Part shown: positions 16,101 through 39,272 of the stretch, piece by piece
Position numbering within the stretch: the first letter of the stretch is position 1
Layout of the letters: each line of letters opens with the position of its first letter
From: Cytophagales bacterium
GTDB lineage: Bacteria; Bacteroidota; Bacteroidia; Cytophagales; JAAEPT01
NCBI GenBank assembly: GCA_965267335.1
Contig: OZ253953.1
Coordinates: 1,670,486 to 1,734,485, forward strand
DNA length: 64,000 nucleotides
Reading direction: 5' to 3'
Position numbers and translations under genes: made by a program
The notes under the pieces: model-generated
Told to the model about the DNA's origin: nothing
Seen by the model: only the letters and a program-made list of their open reading frames with translations
Database searches by the model: none

Positions 16101-16384
16101 TTAGAGGCATAACTAGTGGCCGTATACCCATCGATGGTTACACCTTCTGTTGGACTGGGTAAGTCTGACGCAAGAGTAATTGTGTGTGTGCCAGCTCCAA
16201 GCCCGGAGAAATCTATTATGTCATTGCCTCCGGAGTTTGCTGTCGCATTGGCATCAATTATTGCCTGACGTAAAGAACCCGCCCCAGCGTCATTGGTGTT
16301 GGTGACATTAAATGTAGTAATGGCTTTAGTTTCGCTCGTAAACAATAAAGCTAGCACTGCGGTAAGTAAAAATGTCCTGTTCAT
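13178..16384 (-). CDS. Secreted right-handed parallel beta-helix repeat protein (CSLREA / choice-of-anchor-Q type N-terminus) with T9SS C-terminal sorting domain
   Basis: Signal peptide, then FNVTNTNDAGAGSLRQAIIDANA. About 10 super-repeats of 60-66 aa follow (NNYIG..G...LGN...GI......N.IGG....RN.ISGN...GI). The C-terminal ~80 aa ends ...GVYLVHVQHGNELQTIKVIR (Por tail). Confidence 0.85.
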   Translation of the reverse strand: MNRTFLLTAVLALLFTSETKAITTFNVTNTNDAGAGSLRQAIIDANATANSGGNDIIDFSGLGAGTHTITLASDLPSPTEGVTIDGYTATSYASNSPVIGIDGFTHGFLINNAGATGSFVRGIVIWGCTQDGIEINGVTNITIRGCWIGLDLTGAVPGAIINDNGIYITNASSNIKIGSSSPVDRNIISGCADEGIFIDGGSTDCIIQNNYIGTGTGGNTDLGNGQRGIRVDASNDNQIGVTSNGNVISGNGNHGILVSSSTGTEIINNYIGPGADGSTDLGNDGHGINLDNADNTTIGGSTSNDRNVISGNGAGGLGIGITVTNTSDNCIIRANYIGTNSAGTAALTNAIHGINIENSVDTQIGGTGADEGNLISGNTFSGINIDNASHRTIIRGNYIGVNFDGSTGIANNAHGIYISASDNCEIGGSTLNERNIISDNGDAAGENGISITNCNGHTIMGNFVGVTATGLAALANNDSGLSITTSTGVTVGGSNALEKNVFSGNNNFGIFLDNVDNSDFTNNYIGCDSTGNTAIANGTHGIQAQNDCSTNTWSDNFVNGNTQVGFNMLDIDNNTFTGNYIGLARNGSSDLGNGTIGLRFGAGSSNNTVGGSTSSDRNYISGNGTAAGHHGFFADGASTNTTFIGNYVGSDTSGTIAVGNGGIGIFFLDGSSNNTIGTTNSGEGNLVCCSLNEDGIRSQVSTNTDIQNNIIGLDINMNQTAGFGNALNGIWLMTYGGQTVNDCNIGGLGANERNHISQNGLHGVRVSNYGGTINFETIIGNKIYCNGGEAIDLESGSENESVVAPVVTTTDANTISGTGTAGNTVHVYYNFTGDGGGDCNCEGEAYRGTAVVDGGGNWSVTHNMGYSAAQQNALTATQTTPSGSTSEMWVCSDPLPVTYGNIAATSHLEYSSIEWVTTSEENNSHFIIQKSYDGNMFFDIGSVAGNGNSAEAISYQFNDHQYERDQLVFYRIVQVDFDGKNNTSKIVVLTPGHESLLQVVHKTQSSLLITSAGNDKTWIKVYSVDGKIIESQSTSNPTTLFSYDYLSPGVYLVHVQHGNELQTIKVIR

Positions 16385-19063: not shown

Positions 19064-19984
19064 TTATTCTATTATATTCTTTCTAATGTCCTTAACTGTT
19101 GCAGAAATGTTCTGAAAGTCTTCCTCACTATAACTGATAACTGTCTCACTATTGTCAACAACCATCATGATTCCATCCTGCTCAACAATTTCCGGCTCAC
19201 CTTCAATGACTTCGATCTTAACTGCATCATACGCTTCATTCAGTTTTTTCAGATCAGCAATAAAAGGAGCAATTTTATTGTCTTCTTTGTAGTAGTCAAG
19301 CAATTGCAATAACTGTTCCAACCCCGCTTTTTGCTCCCCAATCTTATCCTTGAGTTCAGCGTTTGGTTTATCATTATACACATTGCATGCCAAACTTAAT
19401 CCTTCAATCCATCCACCGGTTAAAAGGAGCACGCTCAACTGCTCCCGATTTTGGTTTTGCAAATGTAAATTTATTTTTTCAAAGTTCGAAGTAGTTATAA
19501 CTAACAGTGAGTCAAGGTTATTACTATTCTTTATTAGGTTGGTCAAGACTTCAGATGCAAAGAACTGATCAATACTAAGGTCCTTTGCAAGAGACCGCAC
19601 ATTAGACAGGTAAGCAAGCCCATCCTGGTTTTGATTATAAATGTTGGTATACGCGAGATCAGAACCGTAGATTCCTAAATTAAGGGCTTTGTCGTAGGTA
19701 TCCGTATAATTCAGTACGTTTTCGGAAGGGTTAAGATAACTGACATCATACTCACTCCCGATGCTCTTTATCAAGAATGACATTTCCAGAGGTGATGGGA
19801 TTGAGTTGAAAATTTGTGTGATTTCGGCTTTCTCCTCTTCAGTAAATTCTGTCTTTTGTGTTTCACTGATGGTCTTCAAAGAATCCTTGGTGGCTTCAAG
19901 GTCTTCTATGCTTGGTTTTTTTTCGCTTTCACCACAGCTCAACAATAAGCTGCAAGTCAGGGATGCCAGGATTAGTTTTTTCAT
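19064..19984 (-). CDS. Hypothetical lipoprotein (helical)
   Basis: Lipobox MKKLILASLTCSLLLSCG. Predicted largely alpha-helical from composition. Lies 44 nt downstream of the ABC exporter gene. Confidence 0.6.
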   Translation of the reverse strand: MKKLILASLTCSLLLSCGESEKKPSIEDLEATKDSLKTISETQKTEFTEEEKAEITQIFNSIPSPLEMSFLIKSIGSEYDVSYLNPSENVLNYTDTYDKALNLGIYGSDLAYTNIYNQNQDGLAYLSNVRSLAKDLSIDQFFASEVLTNLIKNSNNLDSLLVITTSNFEKINLHLQNQNREQLSVLLLTGGWIEGLSLACNVYNDKPNAELKDKIGEQKAGLEQLLQLLDYYKEDNKIAPFIADLKKLNEAYDAVKIEVIEGEPEIVEQDGIMMVVDNSETVISYSEEDFQNISATVKDIRKNIIE

Positions 19985-20028: not shown

Positions 20029-23000
20029 TTAATGGTGTTCTTTTTTACCTCTGAACTTAATTTTGCCCGCTAACTCAAGAGATTTCCTGAAAATATCAAA
20101 GTACAGTGTAAAGTACAACAATAAGCTCATAAACCATATTACGGAAATATTGAAGTAAAAGGTGCTAAAATACTGTCCAAAAAGATGTTTTTGAGGGGCA
20201 TAGAAATGTGCGCGATAGTCCAGTGCTCCTGAAGGAGAGGGGGTTACGAATATCGGGTCGAGTCTCTGAATAATTCTGCCATCATGTTCCTCAATTCTTT
20301 TACTTGGTTTTAATAATGTTTGTCTGACAATTTCATCCAAACTATTATTGAAGAATTCTGATTTTTTCTTTCTGATGTCATAGCCATTCAGTTCGAGGGT
20401 TTCCATTCTGGTATTTATTTCCTGATCAAAATGATTAAATACATCATTATAAAAGGCTGACCGCTGATTTAAATATTCCTTGAGATCGGAGGCTAAATTT
20501 TGGTCGAATCCATCAACCGATACAGTATCACTAATCGGAGCAGTTTTGTTCTTGCTTCTTTCATTAAGGTAAAGGGTTTCATTTTTTATAAGTTTGAAAT
20601 TTTCCTCGAATACGGGTTTGATAGAATCAGGAAGCTCCGAGTAACTTTTTACACTATAATCCCTTAATAAGTTTTCACACTCCTTTATTTTTTTCTGGAC
20701 CCGAGGAATGTGATATCCTTTAAAGAAGTTGGCCTGGCTTTTATTGCTTTCCAGCTCATAGAAGTATGCGAAATACTCATTCTGTGTGTACATTTCAACA
20801 GAAATAGCCTCATATGCCCATCGTGAAGCCATCAAATCAGCTACAATTGGTGTGCTCTCTTTATTTGCTATATGCTCGTTGAGCTTATCAAAGCTAAATA
20901 ATGCTCCGCTTAATATCATTTGGGGAATCAAGAGCAGAGGAATGACTATGTAAACGGTAACTGCAGAGTTCAATGAAGCGGATATATTGAGGCCGAGGAT
21001 ATTAGCGAAACACGAAACACTAAATAAGGTCAGCCAGAAGCTGAATGTCATACCGTGGATTTCCAGTATCCAATTTCCTACTAAGACATAGGAAATGGTT
21101 TGTATAGCCGATAAAGTGAACAGCAGTCCAAATTTTGAAAACAAATAGCTGTTTTTGCTCAGGTTAAGAAATTTCTCTCTCTTAAGAATTTTCCGGTCTT
21201 TGATGATTTCTTCTGCGCTAACTGTCAGTCCCATAAACAAAGAAACCACGATGCTCATAAGTATATAAGCCGGAATATTTTCATTGTTCATGTATGTATA
21301 CTCGGTACCCTCATTGGTATTCTTGTATCTGATAATGAAGGCCAACAAGAGAGCGAGAAATGGGGCTTCAAGTAGGTTAATAACCAGGTATTGACTATTA
21401 CTTACCTTGGATTTGAGGTCTCTTAATGTATAAATCCACCACTGGATTATGGGGTTTGGTATTTTTAAATTTTTCGGAGGCGCTTCCTTTTCGTCAGGAA
21501 GGTGCTCAATATTAAAACTTTTATTGTAATGTTCAGCCCACTCAGGGGGAGTTACTTTTCGTTTTATGGTTTCCTGGCCATATTCATTTACTACCCGTTC
21601 TTCAATAATGTCAAACATCTGTTCAGGGTTGACATTCCCGCATTCGCTACACTGCCCTTTATCACTGTTGATTTGATTGGAAGCCTTCTTGAAGTATACG
21701 ATAGATTCGATAGGGTTGCCGTAGTAGATTGGATATCCTCCGGTGTCCATTATGAACATTTTATCGAACTTCTTGTAAATTTCTGAAGAGGGCTGGTGTA
21801 TGACAACAAAAATAAGTTTGCCCTTGAGTGATAACTCCTTAAGAAGGTCTATAACATTTTCGGAATCTCTTGATGACAAGCCGCTTGTAGGCTCATCCAC
21901 AAACATTACGGCAGGCTCTCTTATCAATTCTAAAGCAATATTAAGCCTTTTACGTTGTCCTCCACTAATTTTTTTGTTCAGTACGTTACCGACCTTGAGG
22001 TGTTTAATATGCTCAAGTCCCAGGCTGCTTAAGACGTTCCGGACCAATTGAATTAGTTCTTTTTCCGGTGTTCCCCGAAAACACATCTTTGCATTGTAAT
22101 ATAGATTTTCAAAGACAGTAAGATCTTCAATAAGAATATCATCCTGTGAAATGTAGCCTATTACCCCCTGGACCTTGTCTTTTTCCTCGTGGATATCGAT
22201 TCCATTGATAAGAACTTGTCCTTTTGAAGGCTTTTCAAGCCCTGCCAATGCATTTAAAAGAGTAGTTTTACCCGCCCCTGAGGCTCCCATAATCCCAATC
22301 AGCTTGCCTTGTTTTTCGGTAATATTAATATCACGTAGTCCAATGGCTCCATTAGGGAATTTAAATTCCAGGTTTTTAACATTAAAAGTGATGTTTGTCT
22401 GGACCAGGTCATGGTTGAACTGAGCAACAATATCACTATAGTAGAGTGGCACTCCTATCGGGGGCTTAACCGTACTTCCATTGGAAAAGAGTTGTACCCA
22501 TTGATTGCCTAAAGGGTGGTTATTTAGTAAAATTTCATCGGATCCTTTGTACTTGATGAAGTAAAGTTCAACACTTTTGACCTTCAGTATGAAGATGTGC
22601 CCATCCAGATTCTCTGATTGGATAAACAAGGACCTTTTATTGCCTGGATCCTTATGGGAAGAAATTAATATATCTTCAGAGTCCAAATCCTTGGTTTCTT
22701 CGCTGAGCACAAAGTTTTCCATGATCTGATACTCATTTTCTTCTATGTTAAATACAGTTGAAACTGTATTTATGATTTGCCTTCGCTGGGGGGTGAAGTT
22801 TTTATCCGAATTGACCAGCTCCAATAGTTCAATTAATACGATTACTTTTTGTTTTTGAGTAAGCGTTTTATTGATCTTTTTGCAGATAGAGAGCGTTCTT
22901 ACCGAGTCCTTTACTGAAGTAAGCTTGTTTCTGCTAGGGCGGTCTTTTCTTTCAGGACGGTCTGCTCTTCTTGGGCGATCAGGTCTTTCGGGCCTTTCTT

Positions 23001-23181
23001 TCTTTTTAGAGTCTTGAAGGAATTCTTCGTAAAGTTTAATGTACTCCTTTACAGATTGAGCATTGAGCCTTTGTTTGAAAAAGCTCGTAACATAATTTTT
23101 TTCTACCGCGGTAACGCCTTCATCTTGCTTTGTAATAATAGCAAAAAGTTGCGTCAGCGCCTTTAGAATTTCTTCACTCAT
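20029..23181 (-). CDS. ABCG-type (ABC2) exporter, fused ATPase plus permease, with ~260-aa N-terminal regulatory extension
   Basis: Walker A GASGAGKTTLLNALAG, signature ISGGQRKRLNIALEL, Walker B MFVDEPTSGLS, then about 6 TM helices and a long C-terminal extracytoplasmic/helical region. The N-terminus has a helical domain, a (D/E)RPxR repeat and a beta-rich FHA-like segment (degenerate). Confidence 0.9.
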   Translation of the reverse strand: MSEEILKALTQLFAIITKQDEGVTAVEKNYVTSFFKQRLNAQSVKEYIKLYEEFLQDSKKKERPERPDRPRRADRPERKDRPSRNKLTSVKDSVRTLSICKKINKTLTQKQKVIVLIELLELVNSDKNFTPQRRQIINTVSTVFNIEENEYQIMENFVLSEETKDLDSEDILISSHKDPGNKRSLFIQSENLDGHIFILKVKSVELYFIKYKGSDEILLNNHPLGNQWVQLFSNGSTVKPPIGVPLYYSDIVAQFNHDLVQTNITFNVKNLEFKFPNGAIGLRDINITEKQGKLIGIMGASGAGKTTLLNALAGLEKPSKGQVLINGIDIHEEKDKVQGVIGYISQDDILIEDLTVFENLYYNAKMCFRGTPEKELIQLVRNVLSSLGLEHIKHLKVGNVLNKKISGGQRKRLNIALELIREPAVMFVDEPTSGLSSRDSENVIDLLKELSLKGKLIFVVIHQPSSEIYKKFDKMFIMDTGGYPIYYGNPIESIVYFKKASNQINSDKGQCSECGNVNPEQMFDIIEERVVNEYGQETIKRKVTPPEWAEHYNKSFNIEHLPDEKEAPPKNLKIPNPIIQWWIYTLRDLKSKVSNSQYLVINLLEAPFLALLLAFIIRYKNTNEGTEYTYMNNENIPAYILMSIVVSLFMGLTVSAEEIIKDRKILKREKFLNLSKNSYLFSKFGLLFTLSAIQTISYVLVGNWILEIHGMTFSFWLTLFSVSCFANILGLNISASLNSAVTVYIVIPLLLIPQMILSGALFSFDKLNEHIANKESTPIVADLMASRWAYEAISVEMYTQNEYFAYFYELESNKSQANFFKGYHIPRVQKKIKECENLLRDYSVKSYSELPDSIKPVFEENFKLIKNETLYLNERSKNKTAPISDTVSVDGFDQNLASDLKEYLNQRSAFYNDVFNHFDQEINTRMETLELNGYDIRKKKSEFFNNSLDEIVRQTLLKPSKRIEEHDGRIIQRLDPIFVTPSPSGALDYRAHFYAPQKHLFGQYFSTFYFNISVIWFMSLLLYFTLYFDIFRKSLELAGKIKFRGKKEHH

Positions 23182-23217: not shown

Positions 23218-23580
23218 CTAGTAGGGTTTCAGCTCAAAGGGAACATCTATAAGTTCTCCGAACTCCTCACCAGCTTCTTCCATATCTTCGTCATCCTCCT
23301 GGAAATACCAGGTTATGGAAGAGTTGTCAATATCTTCGATAGTTGACATCATATCAAGTAGCATCTTCGATGAGGCGGTGTTAAAGTATTCTAGCTTTAC
23401 CACAAAGTTGGTTGATGGATTTGAGTCCTTAGAATACTCTGTTAACCAATCGATTATAGGTTCGTAAAATTCAGCGGCATCTTCAGGAAGAGATCTACCT
23501 GAAATTTCAAAAATGCCATTATCTTTATCCAGAATTACTCTTGGGGTATCTTCTGCTCCTTCTAAATTAATAACATTCAT
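23218..23580 (-). CDS. SiaC-like regulatory phosphoprotein (DUF1987 family)
   Basis: 120 aa. TPRVILDKDNGIFEISGRSLPEDAAEFYEPIIDWL...LEYFNTASSKMLLDMM matches my recollection of the DUF1987/SiaC pattern (G.S.PEN....Y..V..W......L.Y.NTSS.K). Thr68 sits in the FNTASS motif. Confidence 0.8.
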   Translation of the reverse strand: MNVINLEGAEDTPRVILDKDNGIFEISGRSLPEDAAEFYEPIIDWLTEYSKDSNPSTNFVVKLEYFNTASSKMLLDMMSTIEDIDNSSITWYFQEDDEDMEEAGEEFGELIDVPFELKPY

Positions 23581-23584: not shown

Positions 23585-24133
23585 TTAAACGTTTTCAGGT
23601 TTTACTCTCAAAATTTTAGTTTTTAGTGAAAAAAAGCTGTGCTTTTCGTCAACGGAAGTGAAATTATATTCTAGTTTGTTTCCGGATTTTCTGGCCATAT
23701 CTACAAATCCCAGTCCGGCACCACCTTTCTCAGAAAGGCTACCCTTCTTAATAATGTCTTTATAAAGTTGTTTGAGTCCGTCCTTATCGAGGCTGTTGAT
23801 TTCATCTAGTTTTCCTTTCAGAAAATCAACGTTTTCAGCCAGCATATAATTTCCGGTGCTGATCGCATAATAATCTTGTTCCCTGCCAATTAGAAAGATC
23901 GCTGCATTTTCATGAGTTTTTGTTTCATCTCCGTGCTTTACGATGTTTTGTAGACATTCGACCATTACGTTGAATACTTTTCTTTTAATGCTGGACTCCT
24001 CTCCAATAGAATCCAAATTTCTTTCGGCCATAGAAAGCACTGATTTAGTGATTTCTTGCGTGAACTCACCATCATAGGCCAGGATCAGGTTGGAATCCTT
24101 CATGGTGGTGTGTAGCAGGTAAATACGATCCAT
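23585..24133 (-). CDS. SiaB-like GHKL-fold Ser/Thr protein kinase (anti-sigma-factor-kinase-like)
   Basis: 182 aa. LILAYDGEFTQEIT...VMVECLQNIVKHG (N-box-like) and EKGGAGLGFVDMARKS (G-box) are typical of the small HATPase kinases paired with DUF1987 proteins. Confidence 0.75.
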   Translation of the reverse strand: MDRIYLLHTTMKDSNLILAYDGEFTQEITKSVLSMAERNLDSIGEESSIKRKVFNVMVECLQNIVKHGDETKTHENAAIFLIGREQDYYAISTGNYMLAENVDFLKGKLDEINSLDKDGLKQLYKDIIKKGSLSEKGGAGLGFVDMARKSGNKLEYNFTSVDEKHSFFSLKTKILRVKPENV

Positions 24134-24177: not shown

Positions 24178-27100
24178 TTAAAACTTAATGCCAATTAAAA
24201 GAACATCATCTGTTTGTTTATAATCAGCTTTCCATTCCTGGAAGCGGTCATCGACCATTTTTTGCATCTCTTCAAATTTATTGTAATTGTAAGTTGTGAC
24301 CATTTCCTTAATTCTTTTCGGCCCGAATTTTCTGTTTTCCGGTCCGCCAAATTGATCTGGGTATCCGTCAGAGAAGAAGTAGATAGCATCTCCTTCCTGG
24401 ATATCAATTCGGTGATTGGTAAATTCTGTTTTGTTGCTATAGGAGCTACCTCCTCCGATTGGGAATCTATTGCCCTTGAATTCATGGAGTTCACCATTTC
24501 TGACAAGATATAATGGACGGTGTGCTCCGGCATACTCAACTGTTTTATTTTTAAGGTTAATTCTACAGAAGCCCATATCCATTCCATCTTTAAGCTTGGA
24601 ATCTTCCTCATCTTGCCGCAGTGTTTTAGTGACTAGTTGATCCAGTGTGTCCAGCACTTTGCCCGGCTCGTGAATTCCGCGATCAACGACATCCTGCAAT
24701 AGGAAGTAAGCAATAATTGAGATCAAGGCTCCGGGAACACCATGACCCGTACAGTCAACTGCACTGATTAATATCTCATCACCAACTTTTTGGTACCAGG
24801 GGAAATCACCGCTTACAATATCCCGAGGGAGGAAGTAGATAAATGAATTTGGTAAATCTCTTTTGATAATTGAAGAATTAGGAAGGATGGCATCCTGAAT
24901 TCTTTCTGCATAATTTATGCTATCGTTGATTTTTTTGTTCTTCTCCCGAATTTCGTTTTCAATGGCTTTTTGTTCTGTAATATCATGTGAGACAACAAGC
25001 ACTGATTCGATTTCTTGTTCTTCGTCATATTCTGGAATGGCATTGACATACATTATTCGATTGTCTTCATCTGTCGGGAAGTCCATTTCGTCAGAGACTT
25101 TTGACTTCGTATCAAAAACTTTCGAAATAATATTTTTCCAGGCGGTAATGATTTGCTCATTGAGTTCAACATCATCCAAATTTTTATTTTGGAAATAGTT
25201 GGTATCAAGTCCGGTTAAAGCCTTGATCGTAGGGTTGATATAGAAGAAGTTTCCGTTTTGATTAATTCTCGTAATCAGGTCGAGAGAGTTCTCTGATAGG
25301 GCTTGCATTTGCCCTCTCTTCCTTTCTTCTTCTTCAGCTCTTCGTCTTTCAGTAATATCCTGTGAGTTAAGTACGATACCCTGGATGGCCGGGTCCTCGA
25401 GCATATTACGGCCGGTAGCTTCCAGCCAAATGTTGTCTCCCGACTTTTTATTGTAGGTGAACTGTAGTGTTACCTGTTCGGCTGGGTTGTTGAGTAAGGA
25501 CTTGAACATTTTTTTGATTCCCTTTTGTCCTTTTTCGTCCACAAATTTTAGATCAGAAATTCCGATGAGGTCATCTTGTTTATAGCCTAAGATATTCTCT
25601 ACTGAAGGACTGATGTAGCGAATGGTACCATCTTTTTCATAAATCGTGATCACCTCAGAGGCGTTTTCGAGGAGTACCTGCATTCTTTTTTGAGCGCGGT
25701 TAACTTCCTCAATTTGGTGTTCAAGTTGTTGGTTGGTTCTTTTGAGCTCCTCCTGTGTAGCCTCCATCTCAACTGCATTTTGGCGGAGTTCCTCTTGCTG
25801 AACTTGGAGTTCACTACTCATTCTTTGTGATTCTTCCAGCAGTTTCCTCGTACGCTCATTGACTTTCAAGTTAAATATCGTACGAGCGATAATCTCACTT
25901 ACTTCTTCAACAAACTGTACTTCGCCACTTGTAAATTTTTGAAGTCCGGAGAATTCTACCACTCCATAAACGGTTTCATTCGTAATAAGTGGCACAATGA
26001 GTAAACAAGATGGCTTCTGTTCTCCCAGGATGCCAGAGGTGATCTTTACATAATCATCAGGAACTTCGGTTCTTAAAATAATATCCTTTTCAATAGCAGC
26101 TTGGCCGATCAGACCTTCGGCAAATTTAAACTCAGCTTTTAAGTATTTTTTTCGTTTGTAGGCGTAGCTAGCCTTCATTTCAATGAATATGTTGTCAGGA
26201 TTTTCATCATTGACGCTATAAAATGCTCCCTGAACACCACTAATCCTGTTACAGATATAAGCTACAATTTCATCACCCAGAGATTCGAGGTTATCATTAT
26301 TACGTAAAATTTCACCGATCTCAGCCACTCCAGTAACAATCCAGTTTCTTAAGTTGTCCTGGGTGTCCGCTTTTTGAAGACTTTCACGCATTTCGACAAG
26401 TGCCTGACCGAGTGTATCTTTTTCGCTAATGGGTTCAAAGTCAGCTTCAAATTCTCCTTTTCCTATCTTATTAGCGAATTGAGCAGTTTTTCTTAGTGAA
26501 TCAACGAGGTTATTCACTGTTTCGGTCATTTGACCAATTTCATCTTTGGAGGTGACCTTAATTCTTTTTGGCAGCGCCCCTTTACTGACCAATTCAAGGA
26601 CTTTTTTAAGCCTCAGGAATGGAGATGTGAATAGCTTGGAAAACAAGGTGGCTATTATGAGTGTCAGTACAAATAGGATAATGGAAATAACGATAGTGAA
26701 GATGTCAAGGCTTCTGTGGGCACCATCAATTTCTTTTTGATTGATCTTAGCTATTGCTACTATTCCATAATTATCAAGGCTTTTCCAGTGGGCGTATACC
26801 TCATTGCCATTGTAGTCTGTATAGATACCATTGCCGTCCGGTTGTTTATCCAGATTGGAGGCAGGGTGATCGGGATGCTGAGATGTGAAAAATGGGGTTA
26901 ATCTCTTTTTTGCTAATCTAGGTTCGTTTAGAGTACAGATTCTTTTGTCGGAGGTAGAGATCCCGGTGTCCTGCAACTGTTCGAAACTTGATACATAAGT
27001 ATAAAGTAGCTCACTGGTTTCGCCAATCGAGACGCTGTCGGAATAGTTGTTTAGTAGTTCATTAAAATCGGTTCTTACAACGATTCGACCTTTTATCCTG

Positions 27101-27687
27101 TCTGATTTAGTCAGAATAGGCATCGAAGAGAATAGGTAATAGGTGCTATCATTAATTTTGATGACCGGGCTGGTATAGAACCTTTTCTTATCGTCAAGTA
27201 TAGTCTCCTTGTTATCAATAAAAAATCTGGCCAGATTTTCCTTATTCTTTTGGAAGAGAATTTCTTCTTCGTCATTAAGGATGAATACGTTAGATGCATC
27301 TGTAATTTCTGCATAAACCGGTAACATTCCTGACAGCCCAATATCAACGTATTGTCCCTCTAGAACAATCCCCTGTTCCAGTGCAGCATCAAATTCTTCT
27401 GGTGTTGGTTCAACATAAATTTTACCTCCCGTTTCCAGATAATTTATCAATTCAGGATCAGTGCGGATCTTTTTTAGCTCGACACCAATTTTTTTGAAAT
27501 GGGCGTTAAAAAATTTCTCGGCATATTCAATTGCAGTTTCAAGCTCCCTGTCATATGCTTTTTGTATTGTGGAGTTATTTCTTTTGTTTGAGATGATTAC
27601 CTCTCCGACAATGGCCACAATAATCAGCAATACTGCAAATAGCATGATTTTAGTGCCGATTTTCATATGTCGAAGAAATTTAATCAT
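24178..27687 (-). CDS. Membrane receptor-phosphatase: TM, Cache-like periplasmic domain, TM, HAMP, GAF, coiled coil, PAS, PAS, PP2C/SpoIIE phosphatase (SiaA-like)
   Basis: 1169 aa. Periplasmic YTDYNGNEVYAHWKSLDNYGIVAIAKINQKEI is Cache-like. HAMP is PFLRLKKVLELVSKGALP...DEIGQMTETVNNL. The GAF block is shared with two neighbours. The two PAS blocks are EVITIYEKDGTIRYISPSVENILGY and DLITRINQNGNFFYINPT. The C-terminal SGDFPWYQ...AVDCTGHGVPGALIS...DDVLLIGIKF is PP2C/SpoIIE. An alternative start is ATG 27666 (MKIGTKIM). Confidence 0.85.
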   Translation of the reverse strand: MIKFLRHMKIGTKIMLFAVLLIIVAIVGEVIISNKRNNSTIQKAYDRELETAIEYAEKFFNAHFKKIGVELKKIRTDPELINYLETGGKIYVEPTPEEFDAALEQGIVLEGQYVDIGLSGMLPVYAEITDASNVFILNDEEEILFQKNKENLARFFIDNKETILDDKKRFYTSPVIKINDSTYYLFSSMPILTKSDRIKGRIVVRTDFNELLNNYSDSVSIGETSELLYTYVSSFEQLQDTGISTSDKRICTLNEPRLAKKRLTPFFTSQHPDHPASNLDKQPDGNGIYTDYNGNEVYAHWKSLDNYGIVAIAKINQKEIDGAHRSLDIFTIVISIILFVLTLIIATLFSKLFTSPFLRLKKVLELVSKGALPKRIKVTSKDEIGQMTETVNNLVDSLRKTAQFANKIGKGEFEADFEPISEKDTLGQALVEMRESLQKADTQDNLRNWIVTGVAEIGEILRNNDNLESLGDEIVAYICNRISGVQGAFYSVNDENPDNIFIEMKASYAYKRKKYLKAEFKFAEGLIGQAAIEKDIILRTEVPDDYVKITSGILGEQKPSCLLIVPLITNETVYGVVEFSGLQKFTSGEVQFVEEVSEIIARTIFNLKVNERTRKLLEESQRMSSELQVQQEELRQNAVEMEATQEELKRTNQQLEHQIEEVNRAQKRMQVLLENASEVITIYEKDGTIRYISPSVENILGYKQDDLIGISDLKFVDEKGQKGIKKMFKSLLNNPAEQVTLQFTYNKKSGDNIWLEATGRNMLEDPAIQGIVLNSQDITERRRAEEEERKRGQMQALSENSLDLITRINQNGNFFYINPTIKALTGLDTNYFQNKNLDDVELNEQIITAWKNIISKVFDTKSKVSDEMDFPTDEDNRIMYVNAIPEYDEEQEIESVLVVSHDITEQKAIENEIREKNKKINDSINYAERIQDAILPNSSIIKRDLPNSFIYFLPRDIVSGDFPWYQKVGDEILISAVDCTGHGVPGALISIIAYFLLQDVVDRGIHEPGKVLDTLDQLVTKTLRQDEEDSKLKDGMDMGFCRINLKNKTVEYAGAHRPLYLVRNGELHEFKGNRFPIGGGSSYSNKTEFTNHRIDIQEGDAIYFFSDGYPDQFGGPENRKFGPKRIKEMVTTYNYNKFEEMQKMVDDRFQEWKADYKQTDDVLLIGIKF

Positions 27688-28474
27688 GCTGACCTCCTTT
27701 CTCTTTGTCTGCCTTACGAACTTTATCTAACTCTGCTGAGATGATCTTATTGAGTTCTTCAAGCGCAGCTACTATTGTGGGGTTAATTTCATTAAACGTA
27801 GCGAGTTCAAGGACTGCGATCACTTTTTTGTTGTGCACCAAGGGGAAAGCCAGCAAAAATTTAGGTTTTCCCTCACCAAGGCCTGAGATCACCGTATGTT
27901 GTTCGGTTGGTATTTCATTCAACAGTATTGCTTTTTTTGATTTGGCAGCTTGTCCCACAACTCCTTCTCCCAGTTCAAAACCAGTGTTTTTATCTTCTGT
28001 GATATGAAAGGCATAACCAGCTCTGAAAACATATATTTTGTTTTCTTCGGAGTATAAAGCGCCCTTTACGAGGTTTATTTTTTTTGAAAGTAAGCTAAGT
28101 AAGGCTTCTCCTGCACTAGTTACAGTGGTTTTATTAGCGAATGATTTTTTTATCTCAGTTTCGGTCAATGAAAATTTATCAGTTATTTCTGTTTCCTCTG
28201 TACGTTCAGCTTCATCAGCGTCTTGTCCAACGGTTTCATTGGTCTTCTTCTTTTTGCTAGTTTGAGTAGTTACTGATCTTAGTGAGAGTTGAACAATTGT
28301 CATTGTAGTTCCTATCGCTACGGTGCCTCCAATCCAAATTAGCGCCTTAATGATTGAATCCTGAGAGCCCGGAAATTTGTCATAGACATCGAGAAGATAT
28401 AGGGTAGCAGGAACTATTGTCACTAAAAAAGTGCAAAACAAAATTGTCAATAATAACCTGTTACTAATTTTCAT
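27680..28474 (-). CDS. Membrane-anchored GAF-domain protein
   Basis: 264 aa with two N-terminal TM helices, a Lys/Glu/Thr-rich linker, then GAF (GALYSEE...GEGVVGQAAKSKKAILLNEIP...LLAFPLVHNKKVIAVLELATF). It has start/stop overlaps with both neighbours. Confidence 0.75.
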   Translation of the reverse strand: MKISNRLLLTILFCTFLVTIVPATLYLLDVYDKFPGSQDSIIKALIWIGGTVAIGTTMTIVQLSLRSVTTQTSKKKKTNETVGQDADEAERTEETEITDKFSLTETEIKKSFANKTTVTSAGEALLSLLSKKINLVKGALYSEENKIYVFRAGYAFHITEDKNTGFELGEGVVGQAAKSKKAILLNEIPTEQHTVISGLGEGKPKFLLAFPLVHNKKVIAVLELATFNEINPTIVAALEELNKIISAELDKVRKADKEKGGQHD

Positions 28475-29064
28475 TTAGTGCTGGGCTTCTTTTTATCAAG
28501 TTTTTTTAAAAAATCTATAATTTGGTCTACGGTTAATACGTGATCGACATCACAGAGATTCATGGCTGCTTTTGGCATTGTATCAATAACACAAGTTTTT
28601 GGGTCTTGTACAATGGCAAGTCCGCCCCTTTCCTTAAGTTTTTCCATTCCTACGGCACCATCTTTATTGGCCCCGGAAAGCAATATACCGATTAATTTAT
28701 TTTTATATACATATGAGGCAGAGTCAAAGGCAACATCAATAGAAGGTCTGGAGTTATTAATCATCTCTTCGGTAGATAATGAAATGGTATTACCTAGTTC
28801 AATACACATATGATAGTTGGCGGGGGCCAAATATATGGTGCGCTTTCTTATCACTTGCTTGTCATATGGTTCAACGATTTGGAGCTTAGTTTTGATGGAA
28901 AGTGCTTCAAGAAAACCATGCCGAATGTGCTTGAGCCTATGCATTGCCATTATTATAGGCAGTTCATAATCTTCAGGTAGTTTGTTCAGTATACGTGTAA
29001 TTACTGGAAAGCTCCCCGCTGAACCTCCGATGACAATTGCTTTATATTCTCCGTCAATTTTCAA
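28471..29064 (-). CDS. CheB-type protein-glutamate methylesterase, catalytic domain only (no receiver domain)
   Basis: 197 aa. IVIGGSAGSFPVITRILNKLPEDYELPIIMAMHR, then later SRPSIDVAFDS and GILLSGANKDGAVGM, follow the CheB methylesterase Ser/His/Asp layout. The protein starts directly at the catalytic domain. Confidence 0.85.
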   Translation of the reverse strand: MKIDGEYKAIVIGGSAGSFPVITRILNKLPEDYELPIIMAMHRLKHIRHGFLEALSIKTKLQIVEPYDKQVIRKRTIYLAPANYHMCIELGNTISLSTEEMINNSRPSIDVAFDSASYVYKNKLIGILLSGANKDGAVGMEKLKERGGLAIVQDPKTCVIDTMPKAAMNLCDVDHVLTVDQIIDFLKKLDKKKPSTK

Positions 29065-29071
29065 AGTATAG

Positions 29072-29896
29072 CTAGTCTCTTAGTTTTTTATACACTTTTT
29101 CTTCTCCATTGACGAGTAGAAACTTGTTAGATATTTCGCACCAAATGAGTGACTCTTTAGACCCAATACATAAATAGGAGTACTTGAACATACTCTCATG
29201 CAATGTCTTGAGGACTTGGTTTTGAAGCGACTGATTAAAGTAGATCATCACATTCCTGCAAAGGATGAGATCAAATTTGGAAAAGGGTTCTCCGTTAACA
29301 AGGTTGTGTTCACGGAAAGTAACATTCTCTATAAGCGTTGGATCAAAAATGGCATAATCTCCATCAATATTGTAATAATTACTTAACTCAGCAATACCAT
29401 TAAACCGGATATAATTCTTATTGTTTATATCCATATTTTTCATTTTGTACCTACCAGATTTAGCGGAGTTAATGATGTTTTGGTCTATATCTGTGGCAGT
29501 AATAATCGCTTTGTCAAGAATTTCCAGTTCTTTTAGTAGAATGGCCATGGAAAAGACCTCTTCACCGGATGAGCACCCTGCATGCCATATTCTGATTTTA
29601 TCGTGATTTTGAAGCAGGTTCGGGAATATATTATCTCGTAGAGCTTTCCAGAATGATGGGTCTCTGAACATTTCTGTAACGTTGACAGTCACTTCTGAAA
29701 GGAATAGTTTGAAATAATCTTTTTCGATTCCCAACTTATGAATTAAGCTGTCAACAGATTCGATTCTATGTAAATCCAGAATCCGTACAATTCTTCTTTT
29801 GAACGAAGAAAGGGCATACTCAGAGAAGTCATGGTTGAAATTGTCTCTCAGATAAGCAGTTAGTTTCCTCAGTTCAGATATCTCAATTTCTTTCAT
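29072..29896 (-). CDS. CheR-type protein-glutamate O-methyltransferase
   Basis: 274 aa. N-terminal helical CheR_N region, TEMFRDPSFWKAL, and the SAM site IRIWHAGCSSGEEVFSMAILL with DLILCRNVMIYF. Confidence 0.9.
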   Translation of the reverse strand: MKEIEISELRKLTAYLRDNFNHDFSEYALSSFKRRIVRILDLHRIESVDSLIHKLGIEKDYFKLFLSEVTVNVTEMFRDPSFWKALRDNIFPNLLQNHDKIRIWHAGCSSGEEVFSMAILLKELEILDKAIITATDIDQNIINSAKSGRYKMKNMDINNKNYIRFNGIAELSNYYNIDGDYAIFDPTLIENVTFREHNLVNGEPFSKFDLILCRNVMIYFNQSLQNQVLKTLHESMFKYSYLCIGSKESLIWCEISNKFLLVNGEEKVYKKLRD

Positions 29897-29916
29897 TCGT
29901 GTATTCTATGTGTTGG

Positions 29917-31797
29917 TCAGTTTTTGTCTGAACTCAACTTATTGATTTTCATGTCTTTTATCTTGATGGTATTTTCAAGTTCCTCAATGGTTCGTTGTTG
30001 TTCCTGAAGTTTTTTCTCTAATTGAGTAGTACTTGATTTTGGTAGTTTTTTAAGCTGTGTTTTGTAATCATTAATCCGCGCTTCAAGTTTAGACAACTTG
30101 GTCTCATATTGAAGTTTGGTTGCTCGAAGTTCACGTTCCTGGTTTTCGTGTGTTACTTGCATTTCTTCAATGTTTTGGCGCATACTTTCCTCCTGACTAA
30201 TTAACTTTTCGGTGAGCTCTTGCGAATTTTTTAGCAAGCTTTGGGTTTTTCTGCTCATTTCCACAGTGGCAAGGGAAGCTGCAATGGATGAACTCAACTT
30301 CTCGACAAAGGAAATCTGATAGCCTTTAAATTCTCTGAAGCTTGCCAGCTCAATTACACCATGAATTTCATCGTTGTCTATTAACGGAACAATAAGTAAA
30401 GAGGTTGGGCCGGCATCACCTAATCCAGATTTGATTACCATATGACTTTCAGGGAGGTCTTTTACATAAATAGTCTCTTTTTCTTGCCACACCTGTCCGG
30501 TCAAACCTTCTCCATACTCAAGTCTCTTACTAATGAATTTTTGCCTGTCGAATGCAAAACTGGCGGCTAATTCCAAATGAATATCTTCCTCGTCATTACT
30601 GTTTATTATAAATAGCCCACCTTGATTGGCATCCAGGTACTTGACGAGCTCCGAAATAAGGATATTGGTTAGTTTGTCTAAATTGTCGGAATTGCGTTGA
30701 ATGAGTTCCGCAAAGTGCGCAAGTCCTTCAATTTCCCAGTTTCTTTCTTTCTCAATGCGATCCACTTCTATCATTTTATCGCGCATCTCAACAAGTGCTT
30801 TAGCCAATTCATTATTTTGCCCGCTCTCAGATTTGTCGATCTGCAGATCTGTTTCCAGGTTGTCGTTTGTGACATTTTTCACGAATTGGGTTGCACTATT
30901 TATATAACTGTTAAACTGATCCAGGCAGTAACCGATGTTGTGGTAATGCTCAAATGAAGTTTGGTAATTCAAGATGCTTTGCTCTCCCTGGAGGAGCTCT
31001 TTAGAATGATTCGAAAGGATAGAAATGGGTTGGATGAAGGTTTTTCTTATGAATGCGACTCCCAGTATTACAAGGAGTACGGCTAAAACTATATCCAGCG
31101 CTACAAGTATATAAATGATCACCAGTCTGTCACTGATCTTGTCCAGTGTGTTTTCATAAATTTCATCAATAGTGGTAACTACGAATTCCGACTCTAATTC
31201 ATTGTAATTAATAAGTTCTGCGAAGAGGGGATTTAAAATCTTTTTGGTCCGTTGCGTGGCATAGAGCCGGATGACTTGTCCGGTTTCCGGGTCGATGCCT
31301 GCAGAGTCGGTCTGCTGCGTTTCATAATAAATGCTGTCTGTATAGGGCTCTTCTTCGAAAAAAAGTCGAGAGTTGTTTTTGATGTTCAACCAATGTTCGG
31401 CCAAATAATAATAGAGGTCTTCTTCGTTGGCCTCATTTAGCAGTGCATTGACTTCCTGGTCTTTTGTTTTAGTGTTTAGTTGCTCTACAATTGATTGTAA
31501 GTCATGTCTATGTAAACTGAAAATATCTTCAAAGTGAATCCTGAGAGTTTTTAGCTTTTTTCTTATTGAAGTGCGAAATTCTACCTTGGATACCGGAGGT
31601 TTTTTTGTCTCTTGATTAAATTCATGGAGGACCTGTTTTGTTTCAAGTAGCTTGTAAGACAGTGTGTTGAGGCCGTTTTTCTGCCATAAAGCGAGTGCCA
31701 GAATCAGGTTAAAGAGTACAAATAGAGTACAGAATGCGAAGAAAAACAGGTTGACCCTTCCCTTCAATGACCTCCAATTTGTCTTCTTATCCATCAA
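29917..31797 (-). CDS. Chemoreceptor-like membrane sensor: TM, ~185-aa extracytoplasmic domain, TM, degenerate HAMP, GAF, long coiled coil; no enzymatic output domain
   Basis: 626 aa. The cytoplasmic module RNWEIEGLAHFAELIQRN...ANQGGLFII...GEGLTGQVWQEKETIYVKDLP...LLIVPLIDNDEIHGVIELASF...SQEESMRQNIEEMQVTHENQ is paralogous to those in 24178..27687 and 31943..33583. Confidence 0.8.
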   Translation of the reverse strand: MMDKKTNWRSLKGRVNLFFFAFCTLFVLFNLILALALWQKNGLNTLSYKLLETKQVLHEFNQETKKPPVSKVEFRTSIRKKLKTLRIHFEDIFSLHRHDLQSIVEQLNTKTKDQEVNALLNEANEEDLYYYLAEHWLNIKNNSRLFFEEEPYTDSIYYETQQTDSAGIDPETGQVIRLYATQRTKKILNPLFAELINYNELESEFVVTTIDEIYENTLDKISDRLVIIYILVALDIVLAVLLVILGVAFIRKTFIQPISILSNHSKELLQGEQSILNYQTSFEHYHNIGYCLDQFNSYINSATQFVKNVTNDNLETDLQIDKSESGQNNELAKALVEMRDKMIEVDRIEKERNWEIEGLAHFAELIQRNSDNLDKLTNILISELVKYLDANQGGLFIINSNDEEDIHLELAASFAFDRQKFISKRLEYGEGLTGQVWQEKETIYVKDLPESHMVIKSGLGDAGPTSLLIVPLIDNDEIHGVIELASFREFKGYQISFVEKLSSSIAASLATVEMSRKTQSLLKNSQELTEKLISQEESMRQNIEEMQVTHENQERELRATKLQYETKLSKLEARINDYKTQLKKLPKSSTTQLEKKLQEQQRTIEELENTIKIKDMKINKLSSDKN

Positions 31798-31942
31798 TGA
31801 AAGATATACTTAAATGGAAAAAAATCCAACAGTAGGACACCAATTGCTAATATTGGTCACTATGGTTCTATATAACCCGACTTAGCTCCTCTATTGGGAT
31901 ATATTTCCTATATTTCAGTAAGAAAACTATTGAGGAGTATTT

Positions 31943-33583
31943 ATGCGGTTTAATCTGACTATTGGAAGGCGCCTGGCTTATGGATTTGGTTTTATCATAG
32001 TGTCTATTGTTGCCTACAGTATCTTTACCTATTTCAGACTCAACGAGAACAGAAACCTGAATCAAAAGAATTCTGAGGTTTACATTCCTTCTATCATTCA
32101 GCTTAAGGACCTACAGAAACACGTGACCAGTATGAATACTGTGATGACTTCTTGGCTGGATCATAACCTGCGACAATATGAAGCCGATAATATATATTCC
32201 GACCTTGAAGAGTTGCACCGAATTTGTAATGAGCGATTACGTCCCAGACTTGATGTACTAACCAAAGAATGGGATGAAGTAAGCGATAGCTTGTACAAGC
32301 AAGTATCTTCTACTATTGATTCTATGGTTATATGGCAAAAGAAAGTAATGTTAAAGTATGCCTCAAGACCTGATGATGATATGGAAATGAAAGCCGAATT
32401 AAACCTCATCAGGAATGACTACGAAAGCAGCGTTGGAGCTACCGGTGAACGTATGGCAAGGGTTGAAAGCATAAATGAAGAAGGTGGTATCGGGACAATA
32501 ATTGGTAATTTGACCCAGACATCACGAAAATTAAGTAATAACCTAAATGATTCGGCAGTACTTCTACAGATGCTGGTTGGTATTTTGGGAGGCGTACTGT
32601 TGGTGGTTGGTTTTTTGATCGCCCTTTTTACTTATCGTTCTATTGTGCGCCCGATCAATGATTTAAAAAGCATTCTACTTTCCATGGGTAAAGGGGTTCT
32701 TCCAGAGAATGAAATCCAGGAAAGAAATGATGAGATTGGGGAAATGTCAGCGGCTCTTAACAGCCTCATCAGAGGATTGAAAGACACCTCAAATTTTTCT
32801 AAAAAAATAGGGGAGGGTGAGTTTAATTCGGAATATAAGCCATTAAGTAAGGACGATATTTTAGGTAATTCGCTTCTGGTAATGCGGGATAACCTTTCAA
32901 AAGTAGCTGAAGAGGATAAGAAAAGAAGTTGGAGTACCGAGGGCTTGGCTAGGTTTGGTGAAATTTTAAGAAGAAATAATGATGACCTTAAGAGTCTGAC
33001 AGAAGATTTAATCTTTGAATTAGTTAAGTACCTAAATGCCAATCAGGGAGCAGTTTTTGTATTAAATGAGGATGAAGACGGGCGATTTATGACAATTGCT
33101 TCGTGTTATGCCTGGGACAGACACAAATATCTTGAACAGAGGGTAGAATTGGGAGATGGTTTGGTAGGACAGGCCTGGCAGGAAAAAAGCACCTTCTACA
33201 TTACGGATGTCCCCCAAGATTATATAAATATAACTTCAGGTCTGGGGAAGGCCACTCCTACATCTATTCTCATAGTGCCTTTGATTATGAATGAAGAGAT
33301 TTATGGGATAATTGAGCTGGCTTCTTTTCATGAAATCGAACCTCATCAAATTGAGTTTGTTGAAAAACTTGCAGAAAATACCGCTGCCACGATTAGCACA
33401 GTAAAAGTGAATGAACAGACCAAACTGCTATTGGAACAAACTCAGGAAGCCTCAGAACAATTGAGAGCACAGGAGGAAGAGCTAAGGCAGAATCAAGAGG
33501 AAATGATGGCTACACAAGAGGAGATGCAGCGAAATCTTGATGAGGCCCATGAGGAAATTGCCAGGTTGAAGAAAAAGAAATAG
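31943..33583 (+). CDS. Chemoreceptor-like membrane sensor: TM, four-helix-bundle-type sensor, TM, HAMP, GAF, short coiled coil; no enzymatic output domain
   Basis: 546 aa. The N-terminus MRFNLTIGRRLAYGFGFIIVSIVAYSIF and following helical domain resemble 4HB-type MCP sensors. HAMP is RPINDLKSILLSMGKGVLP...DEIGEMSAALNSL. GAF follows, then AQEEELRQNQEEMMATQEEMQRNL. Confidence 0.8.
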   Translation: MRFNLTIGRRLAYGFGFIIVSIVAYSIFTYFRLNENRNLNQKNSEVYIPSIIQLKDLQKHVTSMNTVMTSWLDHNLRQYEADNIYSDLEELHRICNERLRPRLDVLTKEWDEVSDSLYKQVSSTIDSMVIWQKKVMLKYASRPDDDMEMKAELNLIRNDYESSVGATGERMARVESINEEGGIGTIIGNLTQTSRKLSNNLNDSAVLLQMLVGILGGVLLVVGFLIALFTYRSIVRPINDLKSILLSMGKGVLPENEIQERNDEIGEMSAALNSLIRGLKDTSNFSKKIGEGEFNSEYKPLSKDDILGNSLLVMRDNLSKVAEEDKKRSWSTEGLARFGEILRRNNDDLKSLTEDLIFELVKYLNANQGAVFVLNEDEDGRFMTIASCYAWDRHKYLEQRVELGDGLVGQAWQEKSTFYITDVPQDYINITSGLGKATPTSILIVPLIMNEEIYGIIELASFHEIEPHQIEFVEKLAENTAATISTVKVNEQTKLLLEQTQEASEQLRAQEEELRQNQEEMMATQEEMQRNLDEAHEEIARLKKKK

Positions 33584-38366: not shown

Positions 38367-39272
38367 TTATTTTTGGTATACTCTTACGTAGTCGACAAAC
38401 ATATATTTTGGAAACTTGGTGTTTTCATCCGGTGGACCAGGCCAGTTGCCTCCTACAGCTACGTTGAGAAGCATGTGAAATTTTTGATCGAACGGCCATG
38501 GCTTAGGAGAGAGGTCCTCCGGTGTCTTCGTTGAAAATAGCTTATCATCTATGTACCAGCGAATTTCATCTTCTTCCCATTCTACACTGAACACGTGAAA
38601 CTCGTCTTCGAAAGTCCCTGATTCTAGTGTATAGGATTCTCCAGTATGCTTGTTATTAGGCCAGGGGTCTCCATAGTGAAGTGTACCGTGTGTGGTACTG
38701 GGTTTTTGACCTATGATCTCCATTATATCAATTTCACCACTCTTGGGCCAGCCTCCATAGACGTAGTCGGTTGGTAGCATCCAGATCGCGGGCCACATTC
38801 CTTGTTGAATTGGTAGTTTTGCTCTCACATCAAAACGGCCGTATTTCCAATCAGCCTTATTTTTAGTGTTGAGCCGGGCGGAAGTATAAAACTTGCCTTT
38901 ATAATTTTGTTCCTTCGCCTTAATCACTAGAAATCCATCTTTAATAAAGGAGTTGTTCCGGCTGTTGACATAGTACTGCAGCTCATTGTTTCCTCCACCG
39001 CTGCCATTAACTTCATGAGTCCATTTTGTTGAGTCGATTTCAGAGCCATTAAATTCATCTTGCCATACCAGTTTCCAGTCATCATCGCGTTCCGGCTTTT
39101 GTTTGTAACCGTTATCTACAATCTTCAATGTGAGGTTCTCTTCATCAATTGTTTCTCCTACAGGAACAAATAGATCATCCTTAACGATGAATGAAATGTT
39201 AGAACAGGCTGTAAGTATTAAGCTTGCGACTAAACCGTTAACAATCAGTTTAATATGATTTGATCTTTTCAT
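38367..39272 (-). CDS. Glycoside hydrolase family 16 beta-glucanase (laminarinase-type), lipoprotein
   Basis: Lipobox LILTAC; WQDEFNG...IDSTKWTHE; catalytic GEIDIMEIIG (ExDxxE); C-terminal FMFVDYVRVYQ. Confidence 0.9.
   Translation of the reverse strand: MKRSNHIKLIVNGLVASLILTACSNISFIVKDDLFVPVGETIDEENLTLKIVDNGYKQKPERDDDWKLVWQDEFNGSEIDSTKWTHEVNGSGGGNNELQYYVNSRNNSFIKDGFLVIKAKEQNYKGKFYTSARLNTKNKADWKYGRFDVRAKLPIQQGMWPAIWMLPTDYVYGGWPKSGEIDIMEIIGQKPSTTHGTLHYGDPWPNNKHTGESYTLESGTFEDEFHVFSVEWEEDEIRWYIDDKLFSTKTPEDLSPKPWPFDQKFHMLLNVAVGGNWPGPPDENTKFPKYMFVDYVRVYQK

Follow-up and report, generated by a model that had tools for sequence, protein, structure and literature searches.

The locus

The 64,000-nucleotide stretch analysed here, referred to as the window, comes from contig OZ253953.1 of a Cytophagales bacterium and encodes a stand-alone CheR methyltransferase and a CheB methylesterase amid three sensor paralogues, A_1169, C_626 and D_546 (A, C and D for short). 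In each paralogue a glutamate-rich stretch lies directly C-terminal to the GAF domain as delimited by Pfam, and the possible role of this stretch as a substrate of the two enzymes is the subject of the present analysis.

Nine genes form a row on the minus strand that runs from 31797 to 19064 with intergenic spacings of -8 to 44 nt, in the order C_626, CheR, CheB, B_264, A_1169, DUF6272, SiaC family, TerB-ABC-ABC2 fusion and a lipoprotein-like open reading frame (ORF). D_546 is divergent from this operon at a spacing of 145 nt (Table 1). The stop codon of C_626 lies 20 nt before the start of cheR, suggesting that the two are co-expressed. A, C and D are paralogous over a HAMP-GAF-helix module, with identities of 41% over 344 aa between D and C, 36% over 413 aa between D and A, and 30% over 371 aa between C and A. 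A preliminary description of this DNA had quoted one peptide behind the GAF domain of each paralogue, and all three do exist at such a position, with CheR and CheB encoded between the paralogues as it had said. The coordinates that it gave for A (25741-25821) and D (33464-33540) are in frame and off by a few codons, and those for C (~30121-30205) are one base out of frame.

Table 1. Genes of the CheR/CheB locus and positions of the glutamate-rich motifs in the window
Feature	Position	Strand	Description and assignment
D_546	31943..33583	+	membrane sensor: four-helix-bundle-like N-terminus, HAMP, GAF, C-terminal helix resembling the MAC type
Motif of D, aa 507-534, LRAQEEELRQNQEEMMATQEEMQRNLDE	33461..33544	+	GAF-following C-terminal helix
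C_626	29917..31797	-	TM-GAF-coiled-coil paralogue without output domain; Pfam GAF
Motif of C, aa 532-558, LISQEESMRQNIEEMQVTHENQERELR	30124..30204	-	register by alignment to D
CheR	29072..29896	-	stand-alone methyltransferase, 274 aa; Pfam CheR E 4.5e-43 and CheR_N
CheB	28471..29064	-	methylesterase, catalytic domain only, without receiver domain; Pfam CheB_methylest E 6.4e-50
B_264	27680..28474	-	small TM and GAF protein, motif-free, conserved operon member; Pfam GAF_2
A_1169	24178..27687	-	phosphatase, TM sensor-HAMP-GAF-putative MAC helix-PAS-PAS-PP2C (SpoIIE); Pfam, SpoIIE E 4e-21
Motif of A, aa 626-656, ELQVQQEELRQNAVEMEATQEELKRTNQQLE	25720..25812	-	GAF-to-PAS linker helix
DUF6272 protein	23585..24133	-	SiaB kinase homologue; Pfam DUF6272 E 2e-43; PDB 6KKO chain A E 7e-14
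SiaC-family (DUF1987) phosphoprotein	23218..23580	-	conserved N-T68 site; Pfam SiaC E 2e-38; PDB 6KKO chain C E 8e-13
TerB-ABC-ABC2 fusion	20029..23181	-	TerB-like N-terminus, ABC ATPase and ABC-2 permease, 1050 aa; Pfam
Lipoprotein-like protein	19064..19984	-	306 aa, family unassigned; operon conservation, no match in the Pfam scan

D_546 matched HAMP, GAF_2 and, weakly, 4HB_MCP_1 in Pfam, with no output domain, and all three PP2C motifs, DCTGHG, SDGYPDQ and TDDVLL, can be read in the sequence of A_1169. Among 29 window ORFs compared with Pfam, a set that takes in the majority of the larger ones, none matched MCPsignal (PF00015), CheA, CheW or CheY, in agreement with the earlier remark that no canonical methyl-accepting chemotaxis protein (MCP) was in sight. 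HisKA and HATPase found no Pfam match in A, C and D, and there is no GGDEF protein among the operon genes. The window system is not an MCP.

The closest solved structure to the window CheR is that of B. subtilis CheR (5FTW, E 3e-28), and its homologues among the matches listed, 61-82% identical, belong to Cytophagales and other Bacteroidota. The basic KRRxxR helix of the N-terminal domain is retained, with F-K-R-R-x-x-R invariant; in Salmonella CheR, the basic N-terminal helix region is what recognises the acidic receptor helix. In CheB, S15, H42 and D135 align with what we take to be the Ser-His-Asp triad of T. maritima CheB (structure 3SFT). Since this CheB lacks a receiver domain, any feedback cannot run through CheA phosphorylation.

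Downstream of the receptor A_1169, the DUF6272 protein is a homologue of 6KKO chain A, in our reading SiaB of P. aeruginosa although deposited as 'Putative serine phosphatase', and in the alignment of the DUF1987 protein with chain C of the same entry the YxNTxS segments coincide, with Thr68 conserved. PP2C phosphatase, SiaB-like kinase and SiaC phosphoprotein are thus encoded together, and these homologies identify the downstream module as a partner switch of the SiaA/B/C type. Its candidate target is most plausibly the TerB-ABC transporter.

The conserved block behind the GAF domain

The preliminary description had centred on hexapeptides of the chemoreceptor type. In a scan with the strict pattern [EQ][EQ]xx[ASTG][ASTG] only D (EEMMAT) fits at the motif, and the hexapeptides of A and C are near matches. 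Where the pattern does match in A and C, the sites have nothing to do with the motif, and the pattern was discarded as a descriptor; fitting D alone, the hexapeptide is too narrow. Judged by sequence, the conserved unit is rather a block of ~20 residues, QEEEMRQNMEELQATQEEM.

D retains all three Glu pairs of this block (E512/513, E519/520 and E526/527). In register with D, two of the three are kept in A (E632/633, V639/E640, E646/647), where V639 occupies a position at which A orthologues have Glu and where an extra pair, E660/661, follows two heptads beyond the third. One of the three is kept in C (E537/S538, E544/545, E551/N552), namely the central E544/E545. The A and C copies in the window are partly degenerate, and that of D is the best of the three.

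At E<=1e-5 we found 2735 homologues of D, mostly in Cytophagales (Marivirga, Fulvivirga, Roseivirga, Cesiribacter). Conservation was calculated from the best 120 of these, with an overall identity of ~42%, and in ~90 of them the stretch behind the GAF domain reads sQEEEMRQNMEELQATQEEM, hardly varying. The frequency of the top residue is 0.81 in the motif (507-529), 0.73 in the GAF domain and 0.39 in the following tail; the motif, its polar surface positions included, is conserved better than any other part of the family, and conservation drops abruptly directly after the block. Many HAMP-GAF family members have only PAS at their C-terminus, or no output domain. Six loci from metagenome-assembled genomes of Bacteroidales and other Bacteroidota (L029, L030, L036, L059, L061, L062) hold two to three tandem HAMP-GAF paralogues each, most of them with a near-invariant QEEEMRQNMEE[LM]xATQEEM block, and have no CheR or CheB within 10 kb.

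In the AlphaFold model of D, which is that of a monomer (mean pLDDT 80.8), the block is part of a single continuous helix that runs on from the GAF domain and comprises residues 467-545. The hydrophobicity of the heptad phases puts residues 507/514/521/528 (M or L) at position d. Position a is polar in part, with E511, Q525 and a residue 518 that is Q in D and M in the family consensus. The Glu pairs, spaced by seven residues, come to lie at b/c; positions f/g are taken by A523 and T524. Glu pairs at the core positions a/d had been named beforehand as grounds for giving up the methylation hypothesis; both in D and in the family register the pairs are at the exposed positions b/c, and the hypothesis thus survives.

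The methylation consensus of chemoreceptors is [ASTG][ASTG]xx[EQ][EQ]xx[ASTG][ASTG], with modification at position c, on the second residue of each pair (PMC6829392). D and the family consensus contain the downstream half, EExxA[ST], in the b/c register. The upstream pair of small residues is missing (RQNM/RQNA), and A and C deviate. The E. coli string that had been offered for comparison is correct and corresponds to Tsr 292-330.

Linkage to CheR and CheB

Neighbourhoods were compared in 80 metagenome loci anchored on CheR, a choice of anchor that leaves them unbiased for the motif. Among the 229 ORFs that share the strand of CheR and lie within 5 kb of it, 47 carried the two-heptad EE motif, as against 0 of 185 other ORFs. 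All loci with a CheR of at least 53% identity and enough downstream DNA contain the series CheR-CheB-GAF-PP2C receptor-DUF6272-SiaC-ABC, and the gene order around CheR is identical in Catalinimonas, Persicobacter and Cesiribacter.

These figures bear on the possibility that the resemblance to methylation sites is accidental and that the helix is an ordinary Glu/Gln-rich coiled coil containing EExxA[ST]. Glutamate at b/c is frequent in any coiled coil, small residues at f/g are frequent as well, and two of the three window hexapeptides are near matches only. An accident would nevertheless have to account for near-invariance over hundreds of proteins, for the abrupt loss of conservation after the block and for an enrichment exclusive to the neighbourhood of CheR. 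Chance is the least credible of the readings considered here, and is excluded by the conservation statistics in combination with the enrichment near CheR.

In 11 of 12 CheR-anchored operon loci the two-heptad EE pattern is found in the PP2C receptor. The linker between GAF and PAS in these A orthologues has the consensus QQE[IV]LRQNAEEMxA[TS]QEELxR[TS]NxxLExQIEEVN, and in all CheR-anchored loci whose flanks are long enough they stand at the matching place in the operon. A_1169 is the conserved receptor of the operon, and the conserved partner of CheR/CheB is this PP2C receptor, not A, C and D equally. The other members are similarly constant: a GAF protein of 270-290 aa occupies the position of B_264 in L081-L084 and L165, the TerB-ABC gene keeps its place at 48-60% identity in the operon loci, and an ORF 40-46% identical to the lipoprotein-like protein directly follows the ABC gene in all 11 operon loci that reach past it, which makes it probably the eighth member of the operon.

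Departures from this layout were also seen. Two reduced operons of close relatives, L001 (1-11704) and L166 (1-11707), lack CheB, the DUF6272 kinase and SiaC and retain CheR, the GAF protein, the PP2C receptor and the ABC transporter; their A-like and D-like motifs are degenerate and their C-like motif is intact. In L165, which has both CheR and CheB, the motif of A is degenerate too (REMEQT, QSQL) and that of C intact. The loss of CheB and the decay of the motif had been considered as a decisive natural experiment, which was dismissed on account of L165, degenerate in A despite the presence of both enzymes, and of the C motif, intact in all these loci. In L112 (3423-6509) and L114 (704-3380), the reduction goes further: the genes directly behind a CheR of 48-49% identity are a DUF6272, short or diverged, and SiaC, with no intervening CheB, GAF protein or PP2C receptor; the L112 cluster continues with an ABC transporter.

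A C/D-like motif protein is encoded immediately 5' of cheR in L092, L095, L099, L102, L103, L105, L108 and L113, and the share of loci with such a gene is about one third where enough upstream sequence is available. As the A-type receptor alone is invariably in the operon, the helix might be a real substrate and CheR/CheB of the operon serve A only, C_626 and D_546 being decaying or separate paralogues whose resemblance is inherited. That C holds only one of the three Glu pairs, and that the closest orthologues of D often carry degenerate motifs such as KEDEMEKEQLEMQDKF, would agree with this. It is hard to reconcile, however, with the motif of D_546 being the best in the window, with the intact C-like motif even in the reduced operons and with the co-expression suggested by the short spacing between C_626 and cheR, and we regard such a restriction to A as improbable.

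In a second CheR clade, of 39-46% identity, cheR-cheB stand directly 3' of a gene whose product, 1150-1340 aa long, carries LQASEEELKVQQEELQQTNEELEE; such is the case in 19 of the 21 loci with enough upstream DNA. According to Pfam, these partners are hybrid kinases of the type CHASE3-HAMP-GAF-helix-HisKA-HATPase-REC, and in a variant, L151, the helix stands before HisKA and after three PAS domains rather than behind a GAF domain. An hhalign comparison of the linkers from the PP2C and hybrid-kinase operon types gave a gap-free alignment in register (probability 87%, E 3.9e-6; 43% identity over 40 columns), a score that coiled-coil composition may inflate. The link to fused CheB-CheR-PAS kinases drawn in the preliminary description was borne out as well: a fused CheB-CheR-helix-PAS-PAS-HisKA_2 kinase, without GAF and with a CheR domain 30% identical to the window CheR, carries NEELQSSNEELETSKEEL and NEELKASNEEV..NEELQSSNEELETSKEELQSLNEEL. 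The EE-heptad helix is thus the sole element common to PP2C-receptor, hybrid-kinase and fused-kinase architectures. The fused kinase, MAC1-like in its CheB-CheR-coiled coil-PAS-HisKA_2 layout, is encoded in Catalinimonas (L081, 4480-8260) together with a single-domain response regulator, ~2 kb upstream of the CheR-CheB-PP2C operon, so that both kinds of CheB/CheR system coexist. From the preliminary description, the substrate-like layout and the linkage to CheR/CheB are upheld by the b/c register and by two operon types, while the hexapeptide on which it laid stress is degraded in A and C.

The helix as a proposed substrate of CheR and CheB

On the sequence evidence assembled here, we put the probability at roughly 60% that the glutamate-rich helix is a real substrate of CheR and CheB and a signalling helix of the MAC type, and a number of observations weigh against this. 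In 80 loci anchored on D, taken from species-representative genomes with 10-kb flanks, CheR is nearby in three (L001, L047, L050), and 73 of the 78 intact motif copies lie without CheR/CheB within 10 kb, the unlinked copies being even more uniform than those linked to the operon. For the unlinked copies, a role as substrate would require enzymes that act in trans. The motif drifts in the closest relatives both with CheB (L165) and without it (L001, L166). The pairs are nearly always EE, with little of the E/Q alternation that is typical of MCP sites deamidated by CheB. The helix is single in the AlphaFold model and does not form the antiparallel hairpin bundle on which CheR/CheB act in MCPs. 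A profile of the 42-residue block against all PDB sequences yielded nothing significant (best E 0.31) and no MCP, so that homology to MCP methylation helices is not demonstrable; the abundance of b/c glutamates in coiled coils at large, as pointed out above, counts on the same side. Moreover, in a 2022 preprint, methylation of MAC proteins is said never to have been tested and the proteins to be uncharacterised in any respect (bioRxiv 10.1101/2022.05.07.491037). As a refutation the D-anchored scan was set aside, being offset by the near-complete linkage in the CheR-anchored one, and the E/Q alternation was dropped as a deamidation signature, being uninformative where pairs are almost always EE.

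The same observations would fit an unmethylated helix serving signalling, oligomerisation or partner binding, with CheR/CheB acting elsewhere (on another part of A, on B_264 or on an unlinked target) or merely docking. The block is nearly invariant far from any CheR/CheB; it is so at nearly every position, RQN and ATQ as well as the Glu pairs, as a protein-protein interface would be; and as D-type proteins end shortly after the helix, it could itself be the output surface. The motif drift of L165 in spite of CheR and CheB, the failure to connect the block to MCP methylation helices in the PDB profile search and the want of E/Q alternation point the same way. What such a helix leaves unexplained is that it alone recurs in GAF-helix-PAS-PP2C, CHASE3-HAMP-GAF-helix-HisKA and GAF-less CheB-CheR-helix-PAS-histidine kinase proteins, that the motif is enriched on the CheR strand, that its register and flanking small residues match the rule for MCP sites, and that no other conserved acidic element common to the proteins tied to CheB/CheR was seen. 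An unmethylated helix thus appears unlikely to us, although it has a good deal more in its favour than either chance or a restriction to A.

Proposed mechanism and implications

Anatomy, conservation, heptad register, operon conservation, CheR/CheB linkage and SiaB/SiaC homology, all observed here, are the basis on which the following mechanism is proposed. The block would prolong the last helix of the GAF domain as a long heptad-repeat helix, probably forming a parallel coiled coil in a dimer, and present exposed Glu-Glu pairs at b/c in successive heptads to the enzymes. The stand-alone CheR would methyl-esterify the b/c glutamates and the receiver-less CheB would hydrolyse the esters, and methylation may then alter the charge and packing of the helix and with it the set point of signalling from sensor, HAMP and GAF to the output. 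In A_1169 the signal would travel from membrane sensor, HAMP and GAF along the helix, on through both PAS domains and into PP2C, which together with the SiaB-like kinase might set the phosphorylation state of T68 in the SiaC-like protein. The latter would act on a partner, for which the TerB-ABC transporter of the operon is the most plausible candidate. C_626 and D_546, and possibly many orphan members of the family, may be co-receptors or additional methyl-accepting inputs. The inferred parts of this scheme are methylation as such and any influence that it has on PP2C, the partner on which SiaC acts, and what B, C and D contribute.

Taken as a whole, the scheme describes a methylation module independent of CheA and CheW that would set the gain of a Ser/Thr partner switch gating an ABC transporter in non-flagellated Cytophagales, with output-less MAC co-receptors methylated in trans. 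We offer this only tentatively, with the odds leaning against it. If true, adaptation in the style of chemotaxis would extend to an output that is neither a kinase nor motility. If methylation is confirmed, the reversible modification of glutamates would act on a partner switch of the PP2C type, perhaps on a transporter too, rather than on histidine kinases only, and the retention of CheR/CheB in Bacteroidota without flagellar chemotaxis would be explained. Should methylation be refuted, the near-invariant helix of hundreds of HAMP-GAF proteins would still need a function. MAC proteins are a long-standing and purely computational prediction of CheR and CheB acting outside chemoreceptor arrays. 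This operon, which is conserved widely and occurs in Cytophagales that are in culture (Persicobacter, Catalinimonas, Cesiribacter), makes a compact test case for it. Candidate sites are E513, E520 and E527 in D and E633, E647 and E661 in A, and phosphorylation of SiaC Thr68 provides a readable output.

Other genes in and around the window

Between 33642 and 43597, ~7 kb of minus-strand genes separate D from a TPR-PD40-OmpA gene (40772-42868). These comprise a GH16 glycosidase (38367-39272), ORFs of 652 and 376 aa without a Pfam match and further ORFs of 319 and 576 aa; the block looks like an inserted glycan-utilisation cluster. In the related genomes L165, L166 and L167, a saccharopine dehydrogenase gene comes within one or two genes after the D-like gene, and in Persicobacter and Cesiribacter (L082-L084) a saccharopine dehydrogenase gene lies just upstream of cheR.

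Elsewhere in the window a GH9 cellulase with a type IX secretion C-terminal sorting domain (5258-7588, plus strand) and a 1068-aa beta-helix protein, whose match to a type IX sorting domain is just under the Pfam cutoff (13178-16384, minus strand), would fit a gliding bacterium of the Bacteroidota that degrades polysaccharides. On the plus strand there are also a DNA polymerase III alpha subunit of 1401 aa with an N-terminal RNase_T-type exonuclease fused ahead of its PHP domain (50697-54902) and a multihaem c-type cytochrome of 478 aa whose domains are of the cytochrome c7/c3-like and the class I cytochrome c types (59585-61021).

Comparison with known systems

According to the MiST3 paper, the methyl-accepting coiled-coil (MAC) class was identified by Wuichet and Zhulin in 2010, and the profiles MAC1 and MAC2 have been built for it (PMC6943060). 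The proteins are described as combining receptor and kinase functions, with CheB/CheR either incorporated (MAC1) or associated (MAC2) (bioRxiv 10.1101/2022.05.07.491037). The claim of the preliminary description that the segments are plausible methyl-accepting sites matches this published concept and is in fact a rediscovery of a named class; of the three paralogues that it put forward together, A is the conserved partner, and the PP2C/SiaB/SiaC/ABC output was left unrecognised. Our assignment to the class is by layout and neighbourhood, with the hhalign comparison to MAC2-like linkers (87%) as a surrogate for the MiST3 profiles. The heptad-spaced Glu/Gln pairs on a coiled coil that mark the class are present, completely in D and in part in A and C, and cheR and cheB are adjacent in the manner of MAC2, in the operon of A and C with D as a divergent neighbour. 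A histidine kinase domain in the same protein is absent, as A ends in SpoIIE/PP2C and C and D are output-less. Of the proteins met in the CheR-anchored loci, the hybrid kinases resemble MAC2 and the fused kinase resembles MAC1.

The eight-gene operon of CheR, CheB, GAF protein, putative MAC-PP2C receptor, SiaB-like and SiaC-like proteins, TerB-ABC transporter and lipoprotein appears to be undescribed. A literature search for CheR with DUF1987, or with GAF, methylation and Bacteroidetes, returned no relevant paper, and in the same search nothing was found on CheB-CheR/PAS histidine kinase fusions; none of the papers listed named DUF6272.

With MAC2 the window system shares heptad-spaced Glu pairs between HAMP/GAF sensors and output, an adjacent stand-alone cheR-cheB pair and the absence of CheA, CheW and an MCP signalling domain. 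It differs from MAC2, as that class is described in the papers cited above, in its PP2C output, which would serve a switch of the SiaB/SiaC kind and an ABC transporter, and in its two output-less paralogues. With MAC1 it has in common an EE-heptad helix of one kind (EELQSSNEELETSKEELQSLNEEL in MAC1) that precedes PAS domains, whereas MAC1 holds the enzymes in one polypeptide with the helix and has neither HAMP nor GAF. The resemblance to E. coli Tsr and Tar lies in EE/EQ pairs seven residues apart at b/c, followed by A-S/T (family consensus EEMRQNMEELQATQEEM), and in the CheR/CheB enzymes. Unlike these receptors, the window proteins have no MCPsignal domain, hairpin four-helix bundle, CheA/CheW partner or C-terminal pentapeptide, the window CheB is devoid of a receiver domain, and homology in sequence is undetectable.

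The output, finally, parallels SiaABCD of P. aeruginosa (PMC8457831; bioRxiv 10.1101/674879), which likewise combines a sensor-linked PP2C phosphatase (SiaA), a SiaB-like kinase and SiaC with its threonine. In contrast to that system, the window operon is without the diguanylate cyclase SiaD and has a TerB-ABC transporter and a lipoprotein as neighbours instead, and its phosphatase, unlike SiaA, bears a GAF domain, two PAS domains and a predicted MAC helix, with CheR and CheB encoded in the same operon.

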